This document shows, piece by piece, positions 167 to 31,635 of a stretch of DNA of 43,762 bases; the stretch's first letter is position 1; the number at the start of each line of letters is the position of its first letter. Location: the sequence record SRR22947727_1330, one strand, 5' to 3'. A program made the translations under genes and the position numbers. Below the pieces are notes generated by a model. The model was not told the DNA's origin, ran no database searches, and saw only the letters and a list, made by a program, of their open reading frames with translations.

Positions 167-2083
167 ATGAAAAATACCATTAGCCACAGAGTAGCAGACT
201 TTCTAAAGGGCTTTCCACCATTTAATATGTTATCTATTGAAGTTTTAGAAGATATTGCTATGGAAATAAACATACAATATCTAGATAAAGAGGGGCTGGT
301 GTTCAAAGAAGGAGACAATCCTCATACTAATTTTTATGTGGTGCATAAAGGTGCTGTTGCATTGCGTAAAGCACCTCAAAATGAGATGGTAGACCTTTGT
401 GACGAAGGAGATATTTTTGGATTAAGACCATTAATGGCTCAAGAGAATTACAAAATGGAAGCCAAGGCATATGAGGAAACCATTTTGTATTGCATTCCTA
501 TTGAAGTCTTTAAGCCCTATGCCTTAAAGAACAAAGCAATCGGAAATTTCTTATTGGAGAGTTTCGCTTCAAATACAAGAAATCCATATGCAAAAAACCA
601 TAGGGGAAAACTATATGGAGAGACTAGTTCAGAAGAAACTGAGGCAGTAGTTCCGTTGTTTGACGTTCAACAAGTGCGATGGTCTAAAAACATCATCAGT
701 TGTGAAACAAGTACACCTATAACTGTATTGGCCAGTGCTATGAGGGCAAATAAGATTGGTGCAATACTCGTTTTAAAAGACAAACTACCCATTGGTATTA
801 TCACTGATAAAGACTTGAGGAATAAAATTGGTACTGGAGAAATTCCAATCAGTGGCACTGCATTTGAAATAATGAGTAGCCCTGTAATTACCTATCCCGA
901 AGAACTTACAGTAACCCAAGCCCAAATGGGCATGATGGCCACTGGAGTAAGTCATTTATGTATTACCAAAGATGGAACACCCCATACCAAAGCGGTAGGC
1001 ATTGTTTCCAAACACGACATTATGCTCTCCGTTGGAAATAACCCCTCCGTTTTAATCAAAGCCATTCAAAGGGCTTCTAAAACCAAAGAGGTGAAAAGAA
1101 TTCGTTTGAGTATTATGAAATTATTGAGGGGGTATTTACAACAAGGTATTCCAATGACCATAACTTCAAAAATAATTTCTGAATTAAACAATGCGTGTAC
1201 CAGACAAATTATTACACTGAATTTAAAAAAAATGGAGACCCCTCCACCCTGCTCTTTTGTATGGTTGGCTATAGGAAGTCAGGGAAGAAATGAACAATTG
1301 CTTCAAACAGATCAGGACAACGCTATCATTTTTGAAAAAGAAAGTACTGCTGAAGGGGAACCCCATAAAGAATACTTCCTAGAATTGGCCAAAAAAATCA
1401 ATAAAGGGCTTATGAAAATTGGCTACGAATACTGCCCTGCAGACATGATGGCCTCTAATCCAAAATGGTGTTTAGACCTTGAGAGTTGGAAGAAAAATGT
1501 AAGCTATTGGATCAGTAACCCTGGTAAAAACGAAGTGCTGCTGTCTTCTATCTTTTTTGATTTCAATGCTGTGTATGGCAATACCAAACTTTCTGATGCA
1601 CTGTCAGACGTTATTTTTGACACCCTTAAGGAATTTCCAGTTTTCACCACTCATTTGGCCAGTGGCGCCCTTCAAAGCCCGCCTCCATCTGGATTTTTTA
1701 GAAAATTTTTAGTGGAACATGACGGTGCTAATAAAGACAATTTTGATCTTAAGAGAAGAACCCTTATGCCTCTTACAGATGCTGCTAGAGTATTGGTTTT
1801 ATCTCATTTTGTAAAAGGAATTAACAATACAGCAGCGCGCTTTGAAAAGTTGGCTACACTGGAGCCCAATAATAAAGACTTGTACCTCTCTTGCTCATAT
1901 GCGACCAAAGCATTGCTAAAGTTTAGAACCAAACAGGGTATTCTTCATCGCGACTCTGGTCGCTACTTGGATTTAAATAGCCTGAGCAAAGAAGAACGCG
2001 TAAAATTAAAAAGGACTTTTAAAACCATTAAAGAGATTCAAGAACTGATTAATATTAGATTTAAAGTATCCCAATTATTGTGA
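167..2083 (+). CDS. cNMP-binding-fold + tandem CBS + DUF294 nucleotidyltransferase-like + DUF294_C signalling protein
   Basis: N-terminal cNMP-like domain (VFKEGD, YVVHKGAV, EGDIFG); CBS motifs GIITDKDLR and GIVSKHDI; Pol-beta-type NTase motif GSQGRNEQLLQTDQDN; CPADMMASNPKW; C-terminal FDLK. Confidence 0.9.
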   Translation: MKNTISHRVADFLKGFPPFNMLSIEVLEDIAMEINIQYLDKEGLVFKEGDNPHTNFYVVHKGAVALRKAPQNEMVDLCDEGDIFGLRPLMAQENYKMEAKAYEETILYCIPIEVFKPYALKNKAIGNFLLESFASNTRNPYAKNHRGKLYGETSSEETEAVVPLFDVQQVRWSKNIISCETSTPITVLASAMRANKIGAILVLKDKLPIGIITDKDLRNKIGTGEIPISGTAFEIMSSPVITYPEELTVTQAQMGMMATGVSHLCITKDGTPHTKAVGIVSKHDIMLSVGNNPSVLIKAIQRASKTKEVKRIRLSIMKLLRGYLQQGIPMTITSKIISELNNACTRQIITLNLKKMETPPPCSFVWLAIGSQGRNEQLLQTDQDNAIIFEKESTAEGEPHKEYFLELAKKINKGLMKIGYEYCPADMMASNPKWCLDLESWKKNVSYWISNPGKNEVLLSSIFFDFNAVYGNTKLSDALSDVIFDTLKEFPVFTTHLASGALQSPPPSGFFRKFLVEHDGANKDNFDLKRRTLMPLTDAARVLVLSHFVKGINNTAARFEKLATLEPNNKDLYLSCSYATKALLKFRTKQGILHRDSGRYLDLNSLSKEERVKLKRTFKTIKEIQELINIRFKVSQLL

Positions 2084-2757
2084 TCTTTCCTTTTTTTAAA
2101 AATACACGGACCAAATCGCCCATAATTCTTCCCAAATTTTGGATGAATTATGCTGCACTATTTCTTAAAGAGGAAGCTGTAGATAGTCAAAGTAAATTTA
2201 TTGTTATAGATACTGAAACTACTGGTTTTGACTATGAAAAGGACAGAATACTGTGCATTGGAGCTGTTTTATTGGAAAAAAGTCAAATCGCAGTAAAAGA
2301 TAGTTTTGAAGTGTATTTAACCCAAGATCACTATAACAGTGACAGTACACCCATACATGGTATCTTAAAAGAAGAAAAGAAAGAAAAGACTGCAGAAATT
2401 GAGGCATTAAAAAGCTTTTTAACTTATATAGGCAATGCACCTATTATTGCGCATCATACCATGTTTGACGTTAATATGATCAATAAAGCACTGCACAGAC
2501 AAGGGCTGCCTTCGTTAAAAAATAAACTTTTAGATACCGTAGTATTATACAAGAAAAGCCTATTGAGAAGTCCGCTGATTGAGAAAAAAGACCATTATAG
2601 CCTAGACGAATTGGCAGACAAGTTCAATATTTCAAAAAAAGACAGGCATACCGCTTTAGGAGATGCCTACATCACCGCCCTATTGTTTCTAAAAATTATA
2701 AAAAAACTAAAAGAAAAAACAGGACAGTTAAAATTTAAAAGGCTTTTTATTGATTAA
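2080..2757 (+). CDS. DEDDh 3'-5' exonuclease family protein (DnaQ/PolC-exo-like)
   Basis: ExoI VIDTETTG, ExoII AHHTMFD, ExoIII HTALGDA; GTG start overlaps the upstream TGA (GTGA). Confidence 0.88.
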   Translation: MIFPFFKNTRTKSPIILPKFWMNYAALFLKEEAVDSQSKFIVIDTETTGFDYEKDRILCIGAVLLEKSQIAVKDSFEVYLTQDHYNSDSTPIHGILKEEKKEKTAEIEALKSFLTYIGNAPIIAHHTMFDVNMINKALHRQGLPSLKNKLLDTVVLYKKSLLRSPLIEKKDHYSLDELADKFNISKKDRHTALGDAYITALLFLKIIKKLKEKTGQLKFKRLFID

Positions 2758-2800
2758 ATCAATTGGTTTTAAAGAGGTTTATTCTTCCTGATTTTTTTAA

Positions 2801-4708
2801 CTAAAGGGATTCCTTCATAATTTCTGCTACAACTTCAGGGTTTAATAAGGTGGAGGTGTCGCCCAAATTAGATGTGTCTTTAGAAGCTATTTTTCTGAGT
2901 ATTCTCCTCATAATCTTACCGCTCCTGGTTTTTGGAAGACCAGATACAAATTGAATCTTATCTAACTTTGCTATGGGACCAATATGCTCTGTAATGACCT
3001 GATTGATTTCTTTTCGTAGATTATCTCGGTCTCTGCCCTCTCCTGATTCCTTCAATATAACGTAACCGTAGAGCGCATTTCCTTTAATATCATGAGGAAA
3101 ACCTACAATAGCAGATTCTGCTACAGCTGGGTGCTCATTAATACTATCTTCTATGGGCGCTGTTCCTAAATTATGTCCCGAAACAATAATTACGTCGTCT
3201 ACCCTTCCTGTAATTCTATAATAGCCAACTTCATCCCTTAGGGCTCCGTCTCCTGTGAAATACATGCCTTTAAAAGCAGAGAAATAAGTGTCTTTATACC
3301 GCTGATGGTCTCCCCAAATTGTCCTTGCAATAGAGGGCCATGGGAATTTAATGCAAAGCCTACCGTCTACTTGGTTGCCTTTTATTTCTGCTCCATTCTC
3401 ATCCATAAGCGCTGGCTGAATTCCTGGCATAGGTAAGGTTGCATAGGTAGGAATGGTAGGTGTTACAAAAGGAATGGGTGAAATTAAAATACCTCCAGTT
3501 TCAGTTTGCCACCAGGTGTCTACAATAGGGCATTTCTTCTTGCCAATATGATCATTATACCAATGCCATGCTTCTTCGTTAATAGGCTCTCCAACAGTTC
3601 CTAGTATTCTTAAGGAAGACAAATCATGAGAAGTGACATAATCTAAATTTTCTTTTGCTAGCGCCCTTATTGCTGTAGGAGCAGTATAAAGTTGTGTAAT
3701 TTTATGCTTGTCTATAATATCCCAAAACCTGGAGTAATCCGGATAGGAAGGCACTCCTTCAAACATGACTGTAGTGGCTCCGTTAGCTAAGGGTCCGTAG
3801 ACAATATAAGAATGCCCTGTGATCCAACCAATGTCTGCGGTACACCAATAGACGTCGTTTTCCTTTTGTTGAAAAACATTTTTAAAAGTATATGCTGTAT
3901 AGACCATATAACCCGCCGTAGTATGCAGCATGCCTTTAGGTTTACCTGTAGACCCTGAAGTATATAAAACAAATAGAGGGTCTTCTGATTCCATTACTTC
4001 TGGCACACAATCTCCATAAGCGTCATCTAACAACGGCTGTAACCAATAGTCCCTTCCTTCTTCCATATGAATTTCCGCATGGGTTCTCTTAGCGACCAAT
4101 ACAGAAGCAACACCAGGACAATCTTCCAAGGCTTCATCTACAATTCCTTTCAGGTCAATAGATTTTGCCCCTCTAAAAGAGCCATCTGAGGTAATGAGCA
4201 TTTTTGCCCCACAATCATTGATTCTTGTAGAAAGTGCTGTAGCAGAAAAACCTGCAAAAACTACGGAATGAACAGCGCCTATCCTAGCGCAAGCCAATAC
4301 CGCTATTGCCAATTCAGGAATCATAGGCAAATAAATACACACCCTATCCCCCTTACCAATACCTTGGGCTTTTAACACATTGGCAAACTTACATACACGT
4401 TCATGTAGTTGCCTATAAGTGATATGTATGGCCGGCTCTTTAGGATCATTTGGTTCAAATAAAATAGCCGTTTTATCTCCCCTTGTATATAAATGCCTGT
4501 CAATACAATTTTCTGTAATATTCAGTTGGGCACCTTTAAACCAAGAGATTTCTGCTTTCTCAAAGTCCCAATCCAATACCTGATCCCACTTTTTACGCCA
4601 CATAAAATGCTCTTCTGCCACTTCGCTCCAAAAAAGCTCTGGATCTCTGACAGATTTTCTATAGACACTAAAGTATTCTTCTAAGTGCTTAATGTGATAA
4701 TTACTCAT
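2801..4708 (-). CDS. acs: Acetate--CoA ligase (AMP-forming acetyl-CoA synthetase)
   Basis: YTSGSTGKPKG, WCTADIGWITGHSY, DTWWQTETGG and PKTRSGKIMRR motifs. Confidence 0.97.
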   Translation of the reverse strand: MSNYHIKHLEEYFSVYRKSVRDPELFWSEVAEEHFMWRKKWDQVLDWDFEKAEISWFKGAQLNITENCIDRHLYTRGDKTAILFEPNDPKEPAIHITYRQLHERVCKFANVLKAQGIGKGDRVCIYLPMIPELAIAVLACARIGAVHSVVFAGFSATALSTRINDCGAKMLITSDGSFRGAKSIDLKGIVDEALEDCPGVASVLVAKRTHAEIHMEEGRDYWLQPLLDDAYGDCVPEVMESEDPLFVLYTSGSTGKPKGMLHTTAGYMVYTAYTFKNVFQQKENDVYWCTADIGWITGHSYIVYGPLANGATTVMFEGVPSYPDYSRFWDIIDKHKITQLYTAPTAIRALAKENLDYVTSHDLSSLRILGTVGEPINEEAWHWYNDHIGKKKCPIVDTWWQTETGGILISPIPFVTPTIPTYATLPMPGIQPALMDENGAEIKGNQVDGRLCIKFPWPSIARTIWGDHQRYKDTYFSAFKGMYFTGDGALRDEVGYYRITGRVDDVIIVSGHNLGTAPIEDSINEHPAVAESAIVGFPHDIKGNALYGYVILKESGEGRDRDNLRKEINQVITEHIGPIAKLDKIQFVSGLPKTRSGKIMRRILRKIASKDTSNLGDTSTLLNPEVVAEIMKESL

Positions 4709-4748
4709 GATTTTGGTTGTTTATGTTGGTTATTTGGTAGTTGTTATT

Positions 4749-6449
4749 TTAATGATTTACTGAAGGGGTATTCACGCCACTAGGTATTCTTATATTTTCT
4801 ACAATTTCTTGAACCTCTAGTGGAGGTGCAGCGGTGAAACGGCATACTGTTAGAGACACTATGAAGTTCACTACCATGGCTACTGATCCAAATCCTTCAG
4901 GAGATATTCCGAACCACCATTCTGAAGCAGGTGGGGTGTCTCCCAACCAACCTAGTTTAAATTTAGCCATGTAAAATAACATGAGTAAAATACCCACAAC
5001 CATACCTGAAACAGCACCTTCTTTATTCATTCTCTTATAGAAAATTCCCAATATAATTGCAGGAAAAAGAGAGGCCGCAGCCAATCCAAAGGCTAAGGCT
5101 ACTACAGCTGCCACAAATCCTGGTGGATTGATTCCAAAATATCCCGCAACACAAACCGCCACCACTGCAGACAATCTAGCTGCAAGAAGTTCTCCTTTGT
5201 CAGAGATGGTTGGCATGAAAATCTTTTTGATTAAATCATGTGATACAGAAGCTGAAATAACCAGCAATAATCCTGCTGCTGTAGATAATGCTGCAGCCAA
5301 ACAACCAGCTGCTACAAGAGCAATAACCCAAGCAGGTAGGTTGGCAATTTCAGGATTGGCTAAAACCATAATGTCTGGATCAACTTTAAGCTCATTTATT
5401 TGGGGGTCTGCCACATATTGTACTTTACCGTCTTGATTTTTGTCTTCAAAGGTTAAAAGACCTGTTTTTTCCCAGTTTTTGAACCATTCAGGCATGCCTT
5501 CGTAAGACTTGTCGCTCACTGTTTCAATTAAATTTACCCTAGCAAATACAGCTACCGCAGGTGCTGTGGTATATAAAACAGCAATTAACAACAAGGCCAA
5601 TCCAGCAGATTTCCTAGCATCTTTTACTTTTTTAACGGTAAAAAACCTTACAATTACATGGGGTAAACCTGCCGTACCTACCATCAAGGCTAGCGTAATG
5701 GCTAAAATATCTATCCTATCTTTAGACCCTTCCGTATATTCATTAAAACCAAGTTCTGTTGAAAGACCATTTAGTTTTTCTAATAAATACACCCCAGAGC
5801 CATCATTTAAAGTGTCCCCCATACCTAATTGCGGAATTGGGTTTCCTGTCATTTGAATCGAGATAAAAATAGCGGGTACCATAAAAGCAAAAATAAGTAC
5901 ACAATACTGGGCTACTTGGGTGTATGTAATTCCCTTCATTCCTCCTAATACAGCATAAAACAACACAATGATCATTCCAATGATAACTCCGGTATTAATG
6001 TCTACTTCTAAGAATCTTGAGAACACTACACCTACCCCACGCATCTGACCGGCTACATAGGTAAACGAAACTAGTAAAGCACATACCACAGCTACAATTC
6101 TAGCAGTATCTGAATAATACCTGTCACCAATAAAATCTGGTACTGTAAATTTTCCGAATTTTCTTAAATAGGGTGCCAAAAGTAATGCCAAAAGCACATA
6201 GCCTCCAGTCCAACCCATTAAGTAAACAGATCCGTCATAGCCAGTAAAAGATATGATTCCTGCCATGGATATAAATGAAGCGGCAGACATCCAATCTGCA
6301 GCAGTAGCCATTCCATTTGCTAAGGGTGAAACCCCACCTCCTGCAACATAAAAATCTTTGGTTGAACCAGCTCTAGACCAAATAGCTATTCCAATGTAAA
6401 GGGCAAAAGTGATGCCTACTATAATATAAGTCCAAACTTGAACACTCAT
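4749..6449 (-). CDS. Sodium:solute symporter, ActP-like (probable acetate/monocarboxylate permease)
   Basis: NGMATAADWMSAASF, GKFTVPDF, GTAGLPHVIVRFFTV; many TM helices; directly upstream of acs. Confidence 0.9.
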   Translation of the reverse strand: MSVQVWTYIIVGITFALYIGIAIWSRAGSTKDFYVAGGGVSPLANGMATAADWMSAASFISMAGIISFTGYDGSVYLMGWTGGYVLLALLLAPYLRKFGKFTVPDFIGDRYYSDTARIVAVVCALLVSFTYVAGQMRGVGVVFSRFLEVDINTGVIIGMIIVLFYAVLGGMKGITYTQVAQYCVLIFAFMVPAIFISIQMTGNPIPQLGMGDTLNDGSGVYLLEKLNGLSTELGFNEYTEGSKDRIDILAITLALMVGTAGLPHVIVRFFTVKKVKDARKSAGLALLLIAVLYTTAPAVAVFARVNLIETVSDKSYEGMPEWFKNWEKTGLLTFEDKNQDGKVQYVADPQINELKVDPDIMVLANPEIANLPAWVIALVAAGCLAAALSTAAGLLLVISASVSHDLIKKIFMPTISDKGELLAARLSAVVAVCVAGYFGINPPGFVAAVVALAFGLAAASLFPAIILGIFYKRMNKEGAVSGMVVGILLMLFYMAKFKLGWLGDTPPASEWWFGISPEGFGSVAMVVNFIVSLTVCRFTAAPPLEVQEIVENIRIPSGVNTPSVNH

Positions 6450-6477
6450 AATTTAAAGGAATTTAATATGATATTTA

Positions 6478-6735
6478 CTAATCTTCAAACCCAAATCGTT
6501 TGTCTAGCCTATTCATTAAAAAGACATAGGTAAAGATCAATACCACAAAAATGTAAATTGAACCCTGTTGTGCAAACCAAAAACCCAAAGGAAAACCTCC
6601 TATCTTAAAATTATTGAGTGCGTCTACAAAGAATACACTCAGGCCAAATGAACCTAAAAACCATATAAATAAGAGAATTGACAAATACTTTAAATTTATT
6701 CTCCAGTATTTTTGAGCAGAAATCTTTTGATCCAT
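6478..6735 (-). CDS. DUF4212 small membrane subunit of the solute symporter
   Basis: GFPLGFWFAQQGSI motif, two TM segments; ATG 6735 preferred over the ORF-track start at 6753. Confidence 0.88.
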   Translation of the reverse strand: MDQKISAQKYWRINLKYLSILLFIWFLGSFGLSVFFVDALNNFKIGGFPLGFWFAQQGSIYIFVVLIFTYVFLMNRLDKRFGFED

Positions 6736-6760
6736 AATAGCTTTGATAATCAACTAAATA

Positions 6761-22255: not shown

Positions 22256-22741
22256 CTATTTCATGAATTGTCCATGCCAACTTTCACTTGCAGGTACTTC
22301 CCAATAATTTTCATACTCCGCTTTGGTAGTAACCAAATTATTAAAAACAACTGTATTTCCTGTAACAGAACGGTCTTTGGCCATTTTTTTAAAATCAATC
22401 AGGGTTTTGTGTGCCACATGGGGTCCCTGCTTGTAAGTCACATTCATCTTGTCCAAGAGATCAACACTGTACTGGGCTTCCAGACTTTGAATAAAACGAA
22501 CAGAACTGTCAATGGAGCAGCCGGATGCGCTGCCTTGCTGCGCATCTAATCCAAAGATTATAAAGCGGTTATAAGGCATGTCTACCCCAGCGTACAAATC
22601 ATTCCCATGGGCCGTCCATCCAGATAAAAAAGATTCACAAGCCGCTTTAACGGCTGCCGCTTCCTCATTGGTGAAAGGTCTATTGCTTTGGTATATCCAG
22701 ATTTTAGCATCTTCTGGTAATTCTGAAAAAGGGACTAACAT
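22256..22741 (-). CDS. Conserved Bacteroidota hypothetical protein (WTAHG / SGCSID motifs)
   Basis: 161-aa ORF co-oriented with the GH3 and bshA genes; motifs recalled from a family often labelled 'ABC transporter ATPase', but no Walker A is visible. Confidence 0.75.
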   Translation of the reverse strand: MLVPFSELPEDAKIWIYQSNRPFTNEEAAAVKAACESFLSGWTAHGNDLYAGVDMPYNRFIIFGLDAQQGSASGCSIDSSVRFIQSLEAQYSVDLLDKMNVTYKQGPHVAHKTLIDFKKMAKDRSVTGNTVVFNNLVTTKAEYENYWEVPASESWHGQFMK

Positions 22742-30783: not shown

Positions 30784-31635
30784 TTAGATATTCTCTTTGT
30801 GAAAATCAACCAAACCATCGATAGGTCTTTGTTTAATTTGTCCCACTATTAAATCATTACGATCCATCACCTCTTTGAGCTCTTCTTGAAGATAGAATGC
30901 GATACTTCCTACAAAATGAACAGGTACTTTAGTAGCCAATTCAAACTGCATAATATAATTGTTCACAAACTGCTGTAGTCCTTTTTTAATAACTCCATTG
31001 CAGTAAGGATGCTTTTTGTGTTCCACTATGAACTTAGCAAACTTGGCCAAATAAGTATTTGGATTGGGCTGTTTGTATAAATTTTCTTTAATCACATCTG
31101 CCTCTAGATTAAATTCTTTGGCAAATTGAATGCCTAAATCCTGTGGCATTTTATGGAAGTAATAATCCCTAATAAGCTTTCTGCCAAAGAAGTTACCACT
31201 ACCATCGTCCATTAGGATATAACCCAATGATTGCACTTTTTGAAAAAGCTGGTGGCCGTCATAATAACTACAATTAGACCCAGTTCCTAGAATACATACA
31301 ATTCCAGGATCCCCTAGTTTGGTGGTCGCATAAACGGCGGCATAGGTGTCTTCGCGAACATCTGTTTGTGCGTTTGGAAAAAAGGTGCTGAAAATTTCTG
31401 CTAAGAAATTTTTCATCCTATCCGTGCCACATCCAGCACCGTAAAAGTATACATGGGTAACGACTTCTGAATTCTTGGAAAGTTCAAAATTATTGGCCAA
31501 TCTATCTTCAATCACGTCTCTGGTGAGTACTTCAGGAGATAAACCTAATGTTTGGGTAAAAAATAATTGATTCCCCTTTTCATCCAAGGCAATCCAATCA
31601 GATTTTGTAGCCCCACTGTCTGCTATTAAAATCAT
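30784..31635 (-). CDS. BadF/BadG-type sugar kinase (N-acetylglucosamine kinase-like)
   Basis: ILIADSGATKSDW, YFYGAGC, CILGTGSN, LGYILMDDGSG. Confidence 0.85.
   Translation of the reverse strand: MILIADSGATKSDWIALDEKGNQLFFTQTLGLSPEVLTRDVIEDRLANNFELSKNSEVVTHVYFYGAGCGTDRMKNFLAEIFSTFFPNAQTDVREDTYAAVYATTKLGDPGIVCILGTGSNCSYYDGHQLFQKVQSLGYILMDDGSGNFFGRKLIRDYYFHKMPQDLGIQFAKEFNLEADVIKENLYKQPNPNTYLAKFAKFIVEHKKHPYCNGVIKKGLQQFVNNYIMQFELATKVPVHFVGSIAFYLQEELKEVMDRNDLIVGQIKQRPIDGLVDFHKENI

Follow-up and report, generated by a model that had tools for sequence, protein, structure and literature searches.

The closest described systems to the gene pair examined here, a sensor nucleotidyltransferase (NTase) followed by a DEDDh 3'-5' exonuclease (Exo), are PP_0354/PP_0353 of Pseudomonas putida (alloputida) KT2440, PA3233/PA3232 of P. 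aeruginosa and Pflu5625 of P. fluorescens. Our pair lies in a 43,762-nt stretch of sequence record SRR22947727_1330 (the whole stretch is hereafter called the window; coordinates are given on one strand, 5' to 3'), which stems from the chromosome of a bacterium in the family Flavobacteriaceae; 72% of sampled words are common to the window and the nearest genome, G001. A sequence-only reading of this DNA had described the domains of the NTase, a GS-x10-DxD motif at 1274-1318, a GTGA overlap between the two genes, the Exo motifs and the convergent neighbours, all of which we recovered in place. We propose, with a probability of roughly 0.4, that the two enzymes act as an antagonistic pair on one phosphodiester product and thereby switch carboxylate uptake.

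In the portions of the Pseudomonas literature that are available to us, genes of the PP_0354/PA3233/Pflu5625 type appear as targets of MxtR/ErdR, that is, of the acetate two-component system CrbS/CrbR. For P. putida, the available text of PMC9927547 places pp_0354 (the NTase) and pp_0353 (Exo) in one operon bound by ErdR, and states that the P. aeruginosa homologues adjoin actP-yjcH. Growth on 20 mM acetate was unaffected by deletion of either gene; on pyruvate, deletion of pp_0353 impaired growth like deletion of actP-I and deletion of pp_0354 did not, and the defect was complemented in trans (PMC9927547). Transposon fitness data at 5 mM acetate, as cited in the same paper, make pp_0353 resemble actP-I. 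Excerpts of Dolan et al. (10.1101/2022.08.25.505149) report induction of PA3232-PA3235 on propionate, and those of Price et al. (bioRxiv 10.1101/072470) that DUF4212 and its symporter matter for the use of D,L-lactate or D-alanine, with DUF4212 genes being cofit, in two other species, with a nearby gene labelled 'COG2905 (RNAse T domain protein)'. Protein nucleotidylation by a DUF294-type NTase has already been proposed, according to the accessible passages of PMC5715377 (Sepulveda and Lupas 2017) and bioRxiv 10.64898/2026.09.07.749794; in the latter, the authors suggest that a protein is modified much as PII is in its reversible uridylation, and that PP_0353 acts in the manner of RNase T. No proposal of the exonuclease as the remover of the NTase product was found in the literature searched, and no demonstrated substrate of the NTase-Exo family in the literature examined, as the sequence-only reading had anticipated. 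The cassette is therefore already in print as PP_0354/PP_0353 and PA3233/PA3232, and the window copy is its Flavobacteriaceae member; new here are the co-occurrence with a symporter in one family of genomes (f7), the fusions to PHP, the association of a lost DxD with a missing Exo, an apparent pseudo-exonuclease clade, a controlled prediction of the complex, and a reading of the published deletion phenotypes in terms of antagonism.

A Pseudomonas record (L130) encodes an NTase with the same four Pfam domains as that of the window, followed after a 4-nt overlap by an RNase_T-type Exo, and both this cassette and the window pair adjoin a symporter with a small subunit. The window NTase, from a Bacteroidota host, is nevertheless only ~23% identical to that of P. 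aeruginosa, and the arrangement differs: the Pseudomonas pair stands in one operon with DUF485-ActP, whereas that of the window converges on DUF4212, a VC_2705-family symporter and acs.

The sensor NTase and its exonuclease

The NTase gene (167..2083, plus strand) codes for 638 aa, in which Pfam finds, on the same strand, a cNMP-binding-like domain (aa 38-116, 278..514; PF00027, E 7e-12), a CBS pair (aa ~173-294, 683..1048; PF00571 in two stretches, E 5e-15), DUF294 (aa 316-453, E 1e-43) and DUF294_C (aa 492-632, E 2e-26). The CBS region matches CBS proteins in the PDB by sequence; the segment FGLRPLMAQENYKMEAKA of the cNMP-like domain lacks the cAMP-contacting E and the R-[ST]-A of what we take to be the consensus. 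The protein is 64-66% identical to 'DUF294 nucleotidyltransferase-like' proteins of Cellulophaga and Flavobacterium, and belongs to a family of 5774 clusters (50% identity) at E<=1e-3, or 1458 at E<=1e-30, whose members mostly have ~630 aa. It contains the complete core of pol-beta NTases, G[SG]-x(9-13)-DxD plus a third carboxylate: the catalytic motif GS-x10-DxD, GSQGRNEQLLQTDQD, at 1274..1318 of the plus strand (aa 370-384) supplies G370, S371, D382 and D384, and the third carboxylate, D465, is invariant both in an alignment of 66 NTases (A1, 66/66 rows) and in one of 47 representative NTase modules (A4, 47/47). In A4, G370 is found in 47/47 rows, D382 in 44/47 and D384 in 43/47.

The NTase module (aa 296-638; 1052..2080, plus strand) was modelled with AlphaFold2 from a 47-row alignment, giving a predicted local distance difference test score (pLDDT) of 92 and a predicted template modelling score of 0.90. 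When the model was compared by VIA-align with 48,161 PDB representatives, GlnE came first (1v4a, Z 26.9 over 308 aa at 2.8 Å), followed by DrrA (6yx5_B, Z 25.6) and again GlnE (3k7d_B, Z 25.5), the parts of GlnE being its AR domain (Z 26.9) and its AT domain (Z 25.5). Below these three stood partial DrrA entries and HEPN-type helical domains, with Z <=12.8, and the next match to the whole module was an aminoglycoside NTase, ANT-4, at Z 8.3; Foldseek gave only four matches at E<=1e-3, to the same three proteins (E 6e-7 to 3e-6). Among the rows listed by both programs there was no entry of the cGAS/CD-NTase type, and by sequence search no DUF294 NTase domain was found among solved structures. 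The available text of Anantharaman et al. (PMC3710099) groups DUF294_C with the C-domain of GlnD/GlnE. The kinship to GlnE-type protein modifiers that had been suspected from sequence is thus borne out, the module falling structurally within the GlnE/DrrA group at Z 25-27, and so is the absence of an HD domain, since Pfam gives only cNMP_binding, CBS, DUF294 and DUF294_C and finds no second NTase-like module. To our knowledge, all characterised members of the GlnE/DrrA group place AMP or UMP on protein tyrosine. PADLOC has no family for the NTase and matches Exo by generic DEDDh models alone, and membership in a defence system was rejected on these grounds.

GlnD and GlnE set a reversible nucleoside monophosphate (NMP) mark through small-molecule sensing and have the module of NTase and helical domain in common with the window NTase (Z 25-27 for GlnE). 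Removal of the mark is there carried out by the same polypeptide, through an HD domain in GlnD and a second, phosphorolytic NTase-like module in GlnE; the window protein, by contrast, has a single NTase module, no HD domain and a separate DEDDh enzyme at its side, and its sensors are cNMP-like and CBS domains, not ACT. In our search of 151 genomes, weak matches to PF03445 lay in frames of ~890-1000 aa that are GlnD/GlnE-like in appearance. The writer fold of Legionella DrrA/SidM also matches the window module (6yx5_B, Z 25.6), and DrrA and the de-AMPylase SidD are separate proteins; SidD, however, has a phosphatase-type fold and not a DEDDh fold, and DrrA/SidD form a secreted effector system acting on a host GTPase, whereas the window pair would be a housekeeping-type regulator. 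In MntA-HepT (MNT-HEPN) a pol-beta NTase AMPylates a helical HEPN-type partner, and entries of this type (7aer, 5yep, 8xdj) also match the C-terminal helical domain of the window protein, at weaker scores; the NTase of MntA is minimal, whereas the window protein carries its HEPN-like domain in one chain with the NTase, not as a separate RNase toxin.

The Exo gene (2080..2757, plus strand) codes for 225 aa with an RNase_T domain (PF00929, E 3e-26; 93 bits against a cut-off of 24). All DEDDh motifs (Exo I DxE, Exo II D, Exo III Hx4D) are present on the plus strand: Exo I at 2209-2217 (D44/E46 in DTETTG), Exo II at 2467-2469 (D130 in HHTMFD) and Exo III at 2647-2664 (H190/D195 in HTALGD). These five residues are invariant in 50/50 rows of an Exo alignment (A3; L077 was left out for a stop codon in the chosen range), and the corresponding DEDHD set is retained in 98/105 NTase partners. 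The fold and all catalytic residues are common to Exo and DnaQ/epsilon, the exonuclease domain of PolC and Cas2-DEDDh, and among solved proteins its sequence comes closest to 2p1j (PolC exonuclease domain), 8fy9 (Cas2-DEDDh) and DnaQ. Exo nevertheless differs from these in a clade-specific N-terminal extension and in scoring under every NCBIfam equivalog cut-off (best NF006601, 124.7 vs 189; epsilon models TIGR01406, dnaQ_proteo, 79 vs 223 and NF004316 81 vs 196; RNase T model TIGR01298 26 vs 246). No polymerase, clamp or CRISPR context for Exo was seen within the window.

The two genes overlap at GTGA (2080..2083, plus strand), where the NTase stop TGA (2081-2083) meets the GTG start of Exo at 2080, an arrangement that points to translational coupling. 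That this GTG, rather than the ATG at 2143, is the probable start of Exo is supported by relatives, since the extension motif LPxFWxxYxxxF, LPKFWMNYAALF (aa 17-28; 2128..2163, plus strand), begins upstream of the ATG and is conserved among Bacteroidota partners, and since junctions in relatives are tight; in proteobacterial partners the extension is a different one, aromatic or basic, and fused forms lack it altogether. In 109 NTase-Exo pairs (window included), with the in-frame start codon closest to the NTase stop taken within a range of -20 to +40, the start overlaps the stop in 65 pairs, follows it with a gap of 0-15 nt in 40, and was not found in four, so that 105/109 junctions overlap or are separated by <=15 nt. 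Overlaps of 1 nt (28 pairs) and 4 nt (23) prevail over those of 8 and 20 nt (7 each). Exo was sought in relatives with tblastn and local hidden Markov models (HMMs), tblastn alone having missed a divergent Exo (L128), and five loci (L013, L027, L036, L085 and L130) were counted from neighbourhood listings and not from HMM distances. In the same five loci the Exo frame stays open inside the NTase gene.

A prediction of the NTase-Exo complex, one of the checks envisaged in the sequence-only reading, scored 0.69 (runs 0.69, 0.73 and 0.66), against 0.00 for the best of three controls. In the benchmark for this score, the mark was reached by 116/157 solved complexes and 2/215 mismatched pairs, counts that hold only roughly here because custom alignments (A1, A3) were used. 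At least 96% of contacts are common to the runs, and the pLDDT of the partners is at least 77. The predicted interface joins residues 3-9, 31-40, 104, 106 and 109 of the NTase, i.e. its N-terminus and the cNMP-like domain, to residues 63-77 and 187-208 of Exo, and the modelling thus supports a direct, if still predicted, binding of the two proteins. The interface residues of the NTase N-terminus showed no clear split between Exo-paired and Exo-less forms, and proteobacterial paired forms lack the motif.

Occurrence across bacteria and association with the symporter

Loci were collected in three sets: the best 80 genome loci found with a 25-row alignment (A2), all of them from Flavobacteriaceae; 46 strong matches from 151 genomes of the phylum of G001, which include the near-identical G001 and paralogues within single genomes; and 11 replicons chosen for genus diversity from 58 matches in a plasmid collection. 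Exo lies directly downstream of the NTase on the same strand in 76/80 Flavobacteriaceae loci (two of the misses, L033 and L075, are contig ends, and L046 and L057 truly lack it) and in 33/46 loci of the phylum set, and it follows the NTase in 10/11 replicons from Proteobacteria and Bacillota. The cassette is widespread, the family being seen here in Bacteroidota, Alpha- and Gammaproteobacteria and Bacillota. A symporter and/or Acs occurs within 10 kb in 26/80 Flavobacteriaceae loci and within ~9 kb in 13/46 of the phylum set, and a symporter with a DUF4212 or DUF485 small subunit stands in the same strand block in 7/11 replicons. Gene orders include DUF4212-SSS-NTase-hypothetical-Exo in Ruegeria, acs-DUF4212-SSS-NTase-hypothetical-REC-Exo in Paracoccus, DUF485-ActP-NTase-Exo in P. 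aeruginosa and Methylocella, the same with acs in front in Microvirga, and NTase-Exo-DUF485-ActP in Aeromonas; three Vibrionaceae records and Cytobacillus have the pair alone, and for Skermanella no Exo is listed in the gene table of the plasmid collection, which is incomplete. The recurrence of this pair beside symporter and acs genes, which the sequence-only reading had stated, is hence a matter of record in several phyla. In many Flavobacteriaceae loci, however, the pair abuts purC-phoH with no acs block between them, which makes the acs-symporter block a variable insert.

In alphaproteobacterial operons a protein of 165-193 aa is encoded between the NTase and Exo (L127 7799-8317, L129 7811-8308, L132 7848-8429); it has no Pfam family in L127 and L129, and its counterpart in L132 is annotated as hypothetical. 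Paracoccus adds a receiver domain before Exo (L129 8308-8679). The Exo proteins of these operons are long (479-659 aa), and their N-terminal half has no Pfam match.

Co-occurrence was assessed in the 151 genomes, taking a strong DUF294 match for the NTase and a TIGR03648 score over the cut-off for the symporter; as related genomes are not independent, the counts are given without a test statistic. The NTase is present in 40 genomes and the symporter in 49: both in 28, the NTase only in 12, the symporter only in 21 (19 of these in family f16) and neither in 90. The pattern is sharpest in family f7, where 16 of the 31 genomes have both, 14 have neither, none has the symporter only and one (G035, with incomplete sequence data) has the NTase only, so that the symporter is found in 16/17 genomes with the pair vs 0/14 without it. 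Within genus g11, eight genomes have both and ten neither. In the four f7 genomes that are closed, 0.6-0.8 Mb separate the pair from the unlinked symporter. Acs, found in 142/151 genomes and in 31/31 of f7, is uninformative; these observations point to the symporter, not Acs, as the functional partner in f7. Genus g12 departs from this, with the pair in 7/7 genomes and the symporter in 0/7. The neighbourhood and genome-wide survey that had been suggested as a check thus came out in favour of a link to the symporter, through the replicons and through f7 alike.

Other enzymes take the place of Exo in part of the family. Three of the 120 long Exo relatives listed are fusions of about 700 aa (P0298, P0363, P0379) with the order RNase_T::CBS::DUF294::DUF294_C, the exonuclease occupying the place of the cNMP-like domain of the window protein. 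The long relatives of the NTase module (P0273-P0284, 1175-1247 aa) are, in 12/12 cases, PHP::Cache::PAS::CBS::DUF294::DUF294_C, with an N-terminal PHP phosphoesterase domain, and L099 combines a Cache-PAS-CBS-NTase protein with a Metallophos gene just upstream and DUF485-SSF downstream. Three unrelated phosphoesterase folds, those of DEDDh, PHP and Metallophos, therefore accompany the NTase. Among the 47 rows of A4, DxD is lost at both positions only in L122, L124 and L125, all of which are Exo-less and belong to one subclade; the sole other change is D384N in L123, whose partner is the most degenerate Exo (TEDSD, 179 aa). The members of the Exo-less subclade (L121, L122, L124, L125) are full-length cNMP-CBS-DUF294 proteins that, having lost DxD, look like pseudo-NTase sensors; a Na/Ca exchanger adjoins L121 and L122, and Acs adjoins L124. 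In a tree of 71 NTases, built by a quick method and with long branches flagged, Exo-paired forms stand on both sides of the deepest split and at least five changes of the Exo label are forced.

A Pfam scan of the neighbours in 9 of the 13 Exo-less loci of the phylum set showed NTases directly adjoining DUF485-SSF, DUF4212-SSS-Acs, an SNF symporter or a Na/Ca exchanger. L108 has an Exo-less NTase whose DxD is intact, with a gene for an SNF-family sodium symporter behind it on the same strand; this suggests that the ties of the NTase family reach beyond carboxylate symporters to sodium-coupled transporters more broadly. L110, L112 and L126 are close kin of L108 on the NTase tree.

A putative writer and its proposed remover

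The proposed switch would work as follows. The NTase, a ligand-sensing enzyme, most likely moves NMP from a nucleoside triphosphate to a hydroxyl group, making a phosphodiester, and the acceptor is probably a protein of the carboxylate-uptake pathway. Exo, made in step with the NTase, probably sits on the N-terminal cNMP-like domain and most likely hydrolyses the phosphodiester made by the NTase, freeing 5'-NMP. The product of the NTase would keep uptake through the sodium/carboxylate symporter off, Exo would release the block, and which of the two prevails would depend on the cNMP-like and CBS domains. We infer the reaction chemistry, the sign of the effect on uptake and the identity of the target. 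The idea of a stand-alone eraser, put forward in the sequence-only reading, appears plausible from the sequences, and is indirectly supported by the enzyme fusions, the replacement by PHP, the loss of DxD only in Exo-less forms (bar D384N), the predicted complex and the published phenotypes. Snake venom phosphodiesterase deadenylylates glutamine synthetase, and a 5'-NMP-releasing exonuclease can hence chemically cleave Tyr-AMP. Such a switch would explain why, on pyruvate in P. putida, loss of Exo copies loss of the transporter and loss of the NTase is silent, why unrelated phosphoesterases are found in the place of Exo, and why Exo is absent beside NTases without DxD. The Pseudomonas genetics fit an antagonistic pair, without proving it.

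Several observations speak against an antagonistic pair. The nearest sequence relatives of Exo are nucleic-acid exonucleases, and we know of no DEDDh enzyme that cleaves a protein-NMP bond; a literature search joining 'deAMPylase' and 'DEDDh' gave nothing. Exo is lacking within ~9 kb of 13/46 NTases of the phylum set and from 2/78 assessable Flavobacteriaceae loci (L046, L057), and most of the Exo-less NTases keep DxD, so that an eraser in the form of Exo is not obligatory. Moreover, 7/105 Exo partners are catalytically degenerate, with S/T-E-D-N/S/H-D in place of D-E-D-H-D. They form a clade, the second, paralogous pair of g12-type genomes (L114-L117, L119, L120, L123), in which the Exo I D has become S/T in 7/7 and the Exo III H has become N/S in 6/7, the N-terminal YPDFW motif is kept, and 4/7 loci are near acs; judging by these residues, it looks like a conserved pseudo-exonuclease. 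As DxD is intact in 6/7 of the paired NTases, Exo can evidently be retained for a non-catalytic role, and the Exo-less NTases and the degenerate Exo clade, read from their sequences, argue against a strict rule of writer and eraser. The predicted interface lies on the cNMP-like domain, away from the NTase active site, and fits a regulation of Exo equally well. The pair occurs without the TIGR03648 symporter in 12/40 genomes, and the symporter without the pair in 21/49. COG2905 denotes the NTase, which makes the identity of the gene cofit with DUF4212 uncertain. Finally, the accessible part of bioRxiv 10.64898/2026.09.07.749794 reports that growth on propionate is reduced by deletion of pp_0353 as well as of pp_0354, which is not simple antagonism.

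Some of these points would be met by a different arrangement, unlikely on balance and still deserving of weight, in which Exo is the output of the pair and trims or degrades a specific RNA (e.g. the symporter mRNA or a small RNA), as needed for symporter expression, with the NTase binding, perhaps nucleotidylating, and restraining it. The closest solved relatives of Exo do act on nucleic-acid 3' ends, the predicted contact is with the sensor domain and includes residues beside H190/D195, a phenotype was seen in the Exo mutant and none in the NTase mutant (PMC9927547), and the conserved pseudo-exonucleases lean toward an RNA effector. Yet the Exo-less NTases directly beside transporter genes imply that the NTase has other outputs, PHP replaces DEDDh in the fused sensors, Pfam finds no RNA-binding domain in either protein, and the strictly conserved catalytic residues of the Exo-paired NTases call for a substrate. 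A diffusible nucleotide signal made by the NTase, such as a nucleotidylated metabolite or a short oligonucleotide, which acts on the symporter or Acs and is cleared by Exo, seems to us improbable: the logic of writer and remover and the comparative evidence apply to it equally, DEDDh enzymes that clear dinucleotides exist (oligoribonuclease), and the fold relatives include small-molecule NTases (aminoglycoside ANT, Z 7-8). Over its full length, however, the module matches the protein modifiers GlnE and DrrA far better than ANT, the rows listed hold no cGAS/CD-NTase-type match, PADLOC lacks a family for the NTase, and a synthase held in a tight 1:1 complex with its degrader would work in vain if the complex were not gated.

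The adjacency of a pol-beta superfamily NTase and a 3'-5' exonuclease also brings to mind the tailing and trimming of an RNA 3' end, extended by the NTase and cut back by Exo, as by CCA-adding enzyme and RNase T on tRNA; the PHP and Metallophos families include 3'-5' exonucleases as well. With a fold of the GlnE/DrrA type, no CCA-adding enzyme or poly(A) polymerase among the 50 rows listed, and no RNA-binding domain found by Pfam, this is very improbable. Hardly credible is a chance neighbourhood with Exo as a spare enzyme of DNA proofreading or repair, for which its weak likeness to DnaQ and PolC exonuclease domains could be cited, given that Exo scores under all epsilon equivalog cut-offs, that the overlapping junction is kept across phyla, that fusions with the NTase exist, and that the pair co-occurs with the symporter and has published carbon-source phenotypes.

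Extended beyond the window, the reading of the two enzymes as writer and remover would make this DEDDh clade, together with the PHP and Metallophos enzymes that replace it, protein de-nucleotidylases bound to a GlnE-type writer, in a GlnD-like switch of sodium-coupled carboxylate symporters, a generalisation that we regard as rather doubtful. The family concerned is large (1458 clusters at E<=1e-30) and belongs to the acetate/pyruvate/propionate regulon of model pseudomonads. Were the pair a switch of writer and remover, a fourth kind of NMP-removing enzyme would join those of GlnD, GlnE and SidD, the DnaQ fold would gain a non-nucleic-acid substrate, and it would be explained how bacteria throttle the uptake of short-chain acids, at once useful and toxic to them; the generalisation, if true, would give that fold a new enzymatic job and reveal a new mode of regulation of secondary transporters.

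The acs-symporter operon and the rest of the window

On the minus strand, convergent with Exo and separated from it by 43 nt between the stop codons, lies acs (2801..4708), encoding an acetyl-CoA synthetase of 635 aa (TIGR02188, 958 bits vs a cut-off of 725). It is followed by the genes for the large subunit of a VC_2705-family sodium/solute symporter (4749..6449, minus strand; 566 aa; TIGR03648, 863 bits vs 321) and for its small subunit, DUF4212/TIGR03647 (6478..6735, minus strand; PF13937, E 7e-32), which we start at the ATG at 6735, the listed open reading frame (ORF) beginning at a TTG at 6753. The convergence of the pair on DUF4212-symporter-acs was correctly described in the sequence-only reading; one correction concerns the permease, which is not ActP proper, scoring 153 bits against the TIGR02711 cut-off of 1099 and belonging to TIGR03648 instead. 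The label of acetate uptake likewise holds only in part, for acs is indeed adjacent and the substrate itself is assigned by inference, relatives of this symporter type being tied to lactate and D-alanine in the available text of bioRxiv 10.1101/072470. The VC_2705-type symporters of family f30 have 740-780 aa, ~170 aa more than that of the window (L082 5161-7389; G131, G119, G095), and the additional ~170 aa have no Pfam match.

The start of the acs-symporter-DUF4212 operon adjoins a terminator-like hairpin that follows purC, just upstream of DUF4212. The sequence AGATAAG, shared upstream of both operons, occurs at chance level (9 matches vs 7.0 expected; 28/100 shuffles equally high), and inspection of 18 upstream regions, from the window and 17 relatives, showed no conserved motif. 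For two minus-strand ORFs, at 22256-22741 (161 aa) and 30784-31635 (283 aa), Pfam gives no family at E<=1e-5. Elsewhere, the window carries housekeeping genes, including dnaN, mnmE, LptD, TamB, pfk and gap. ARAGORN found no complete tRNA within the window; its first 83 nt (1-83) hold the apparent 3' end of a tRNA gene cut by the edge, with a terminator-like hairpin at 56-83.

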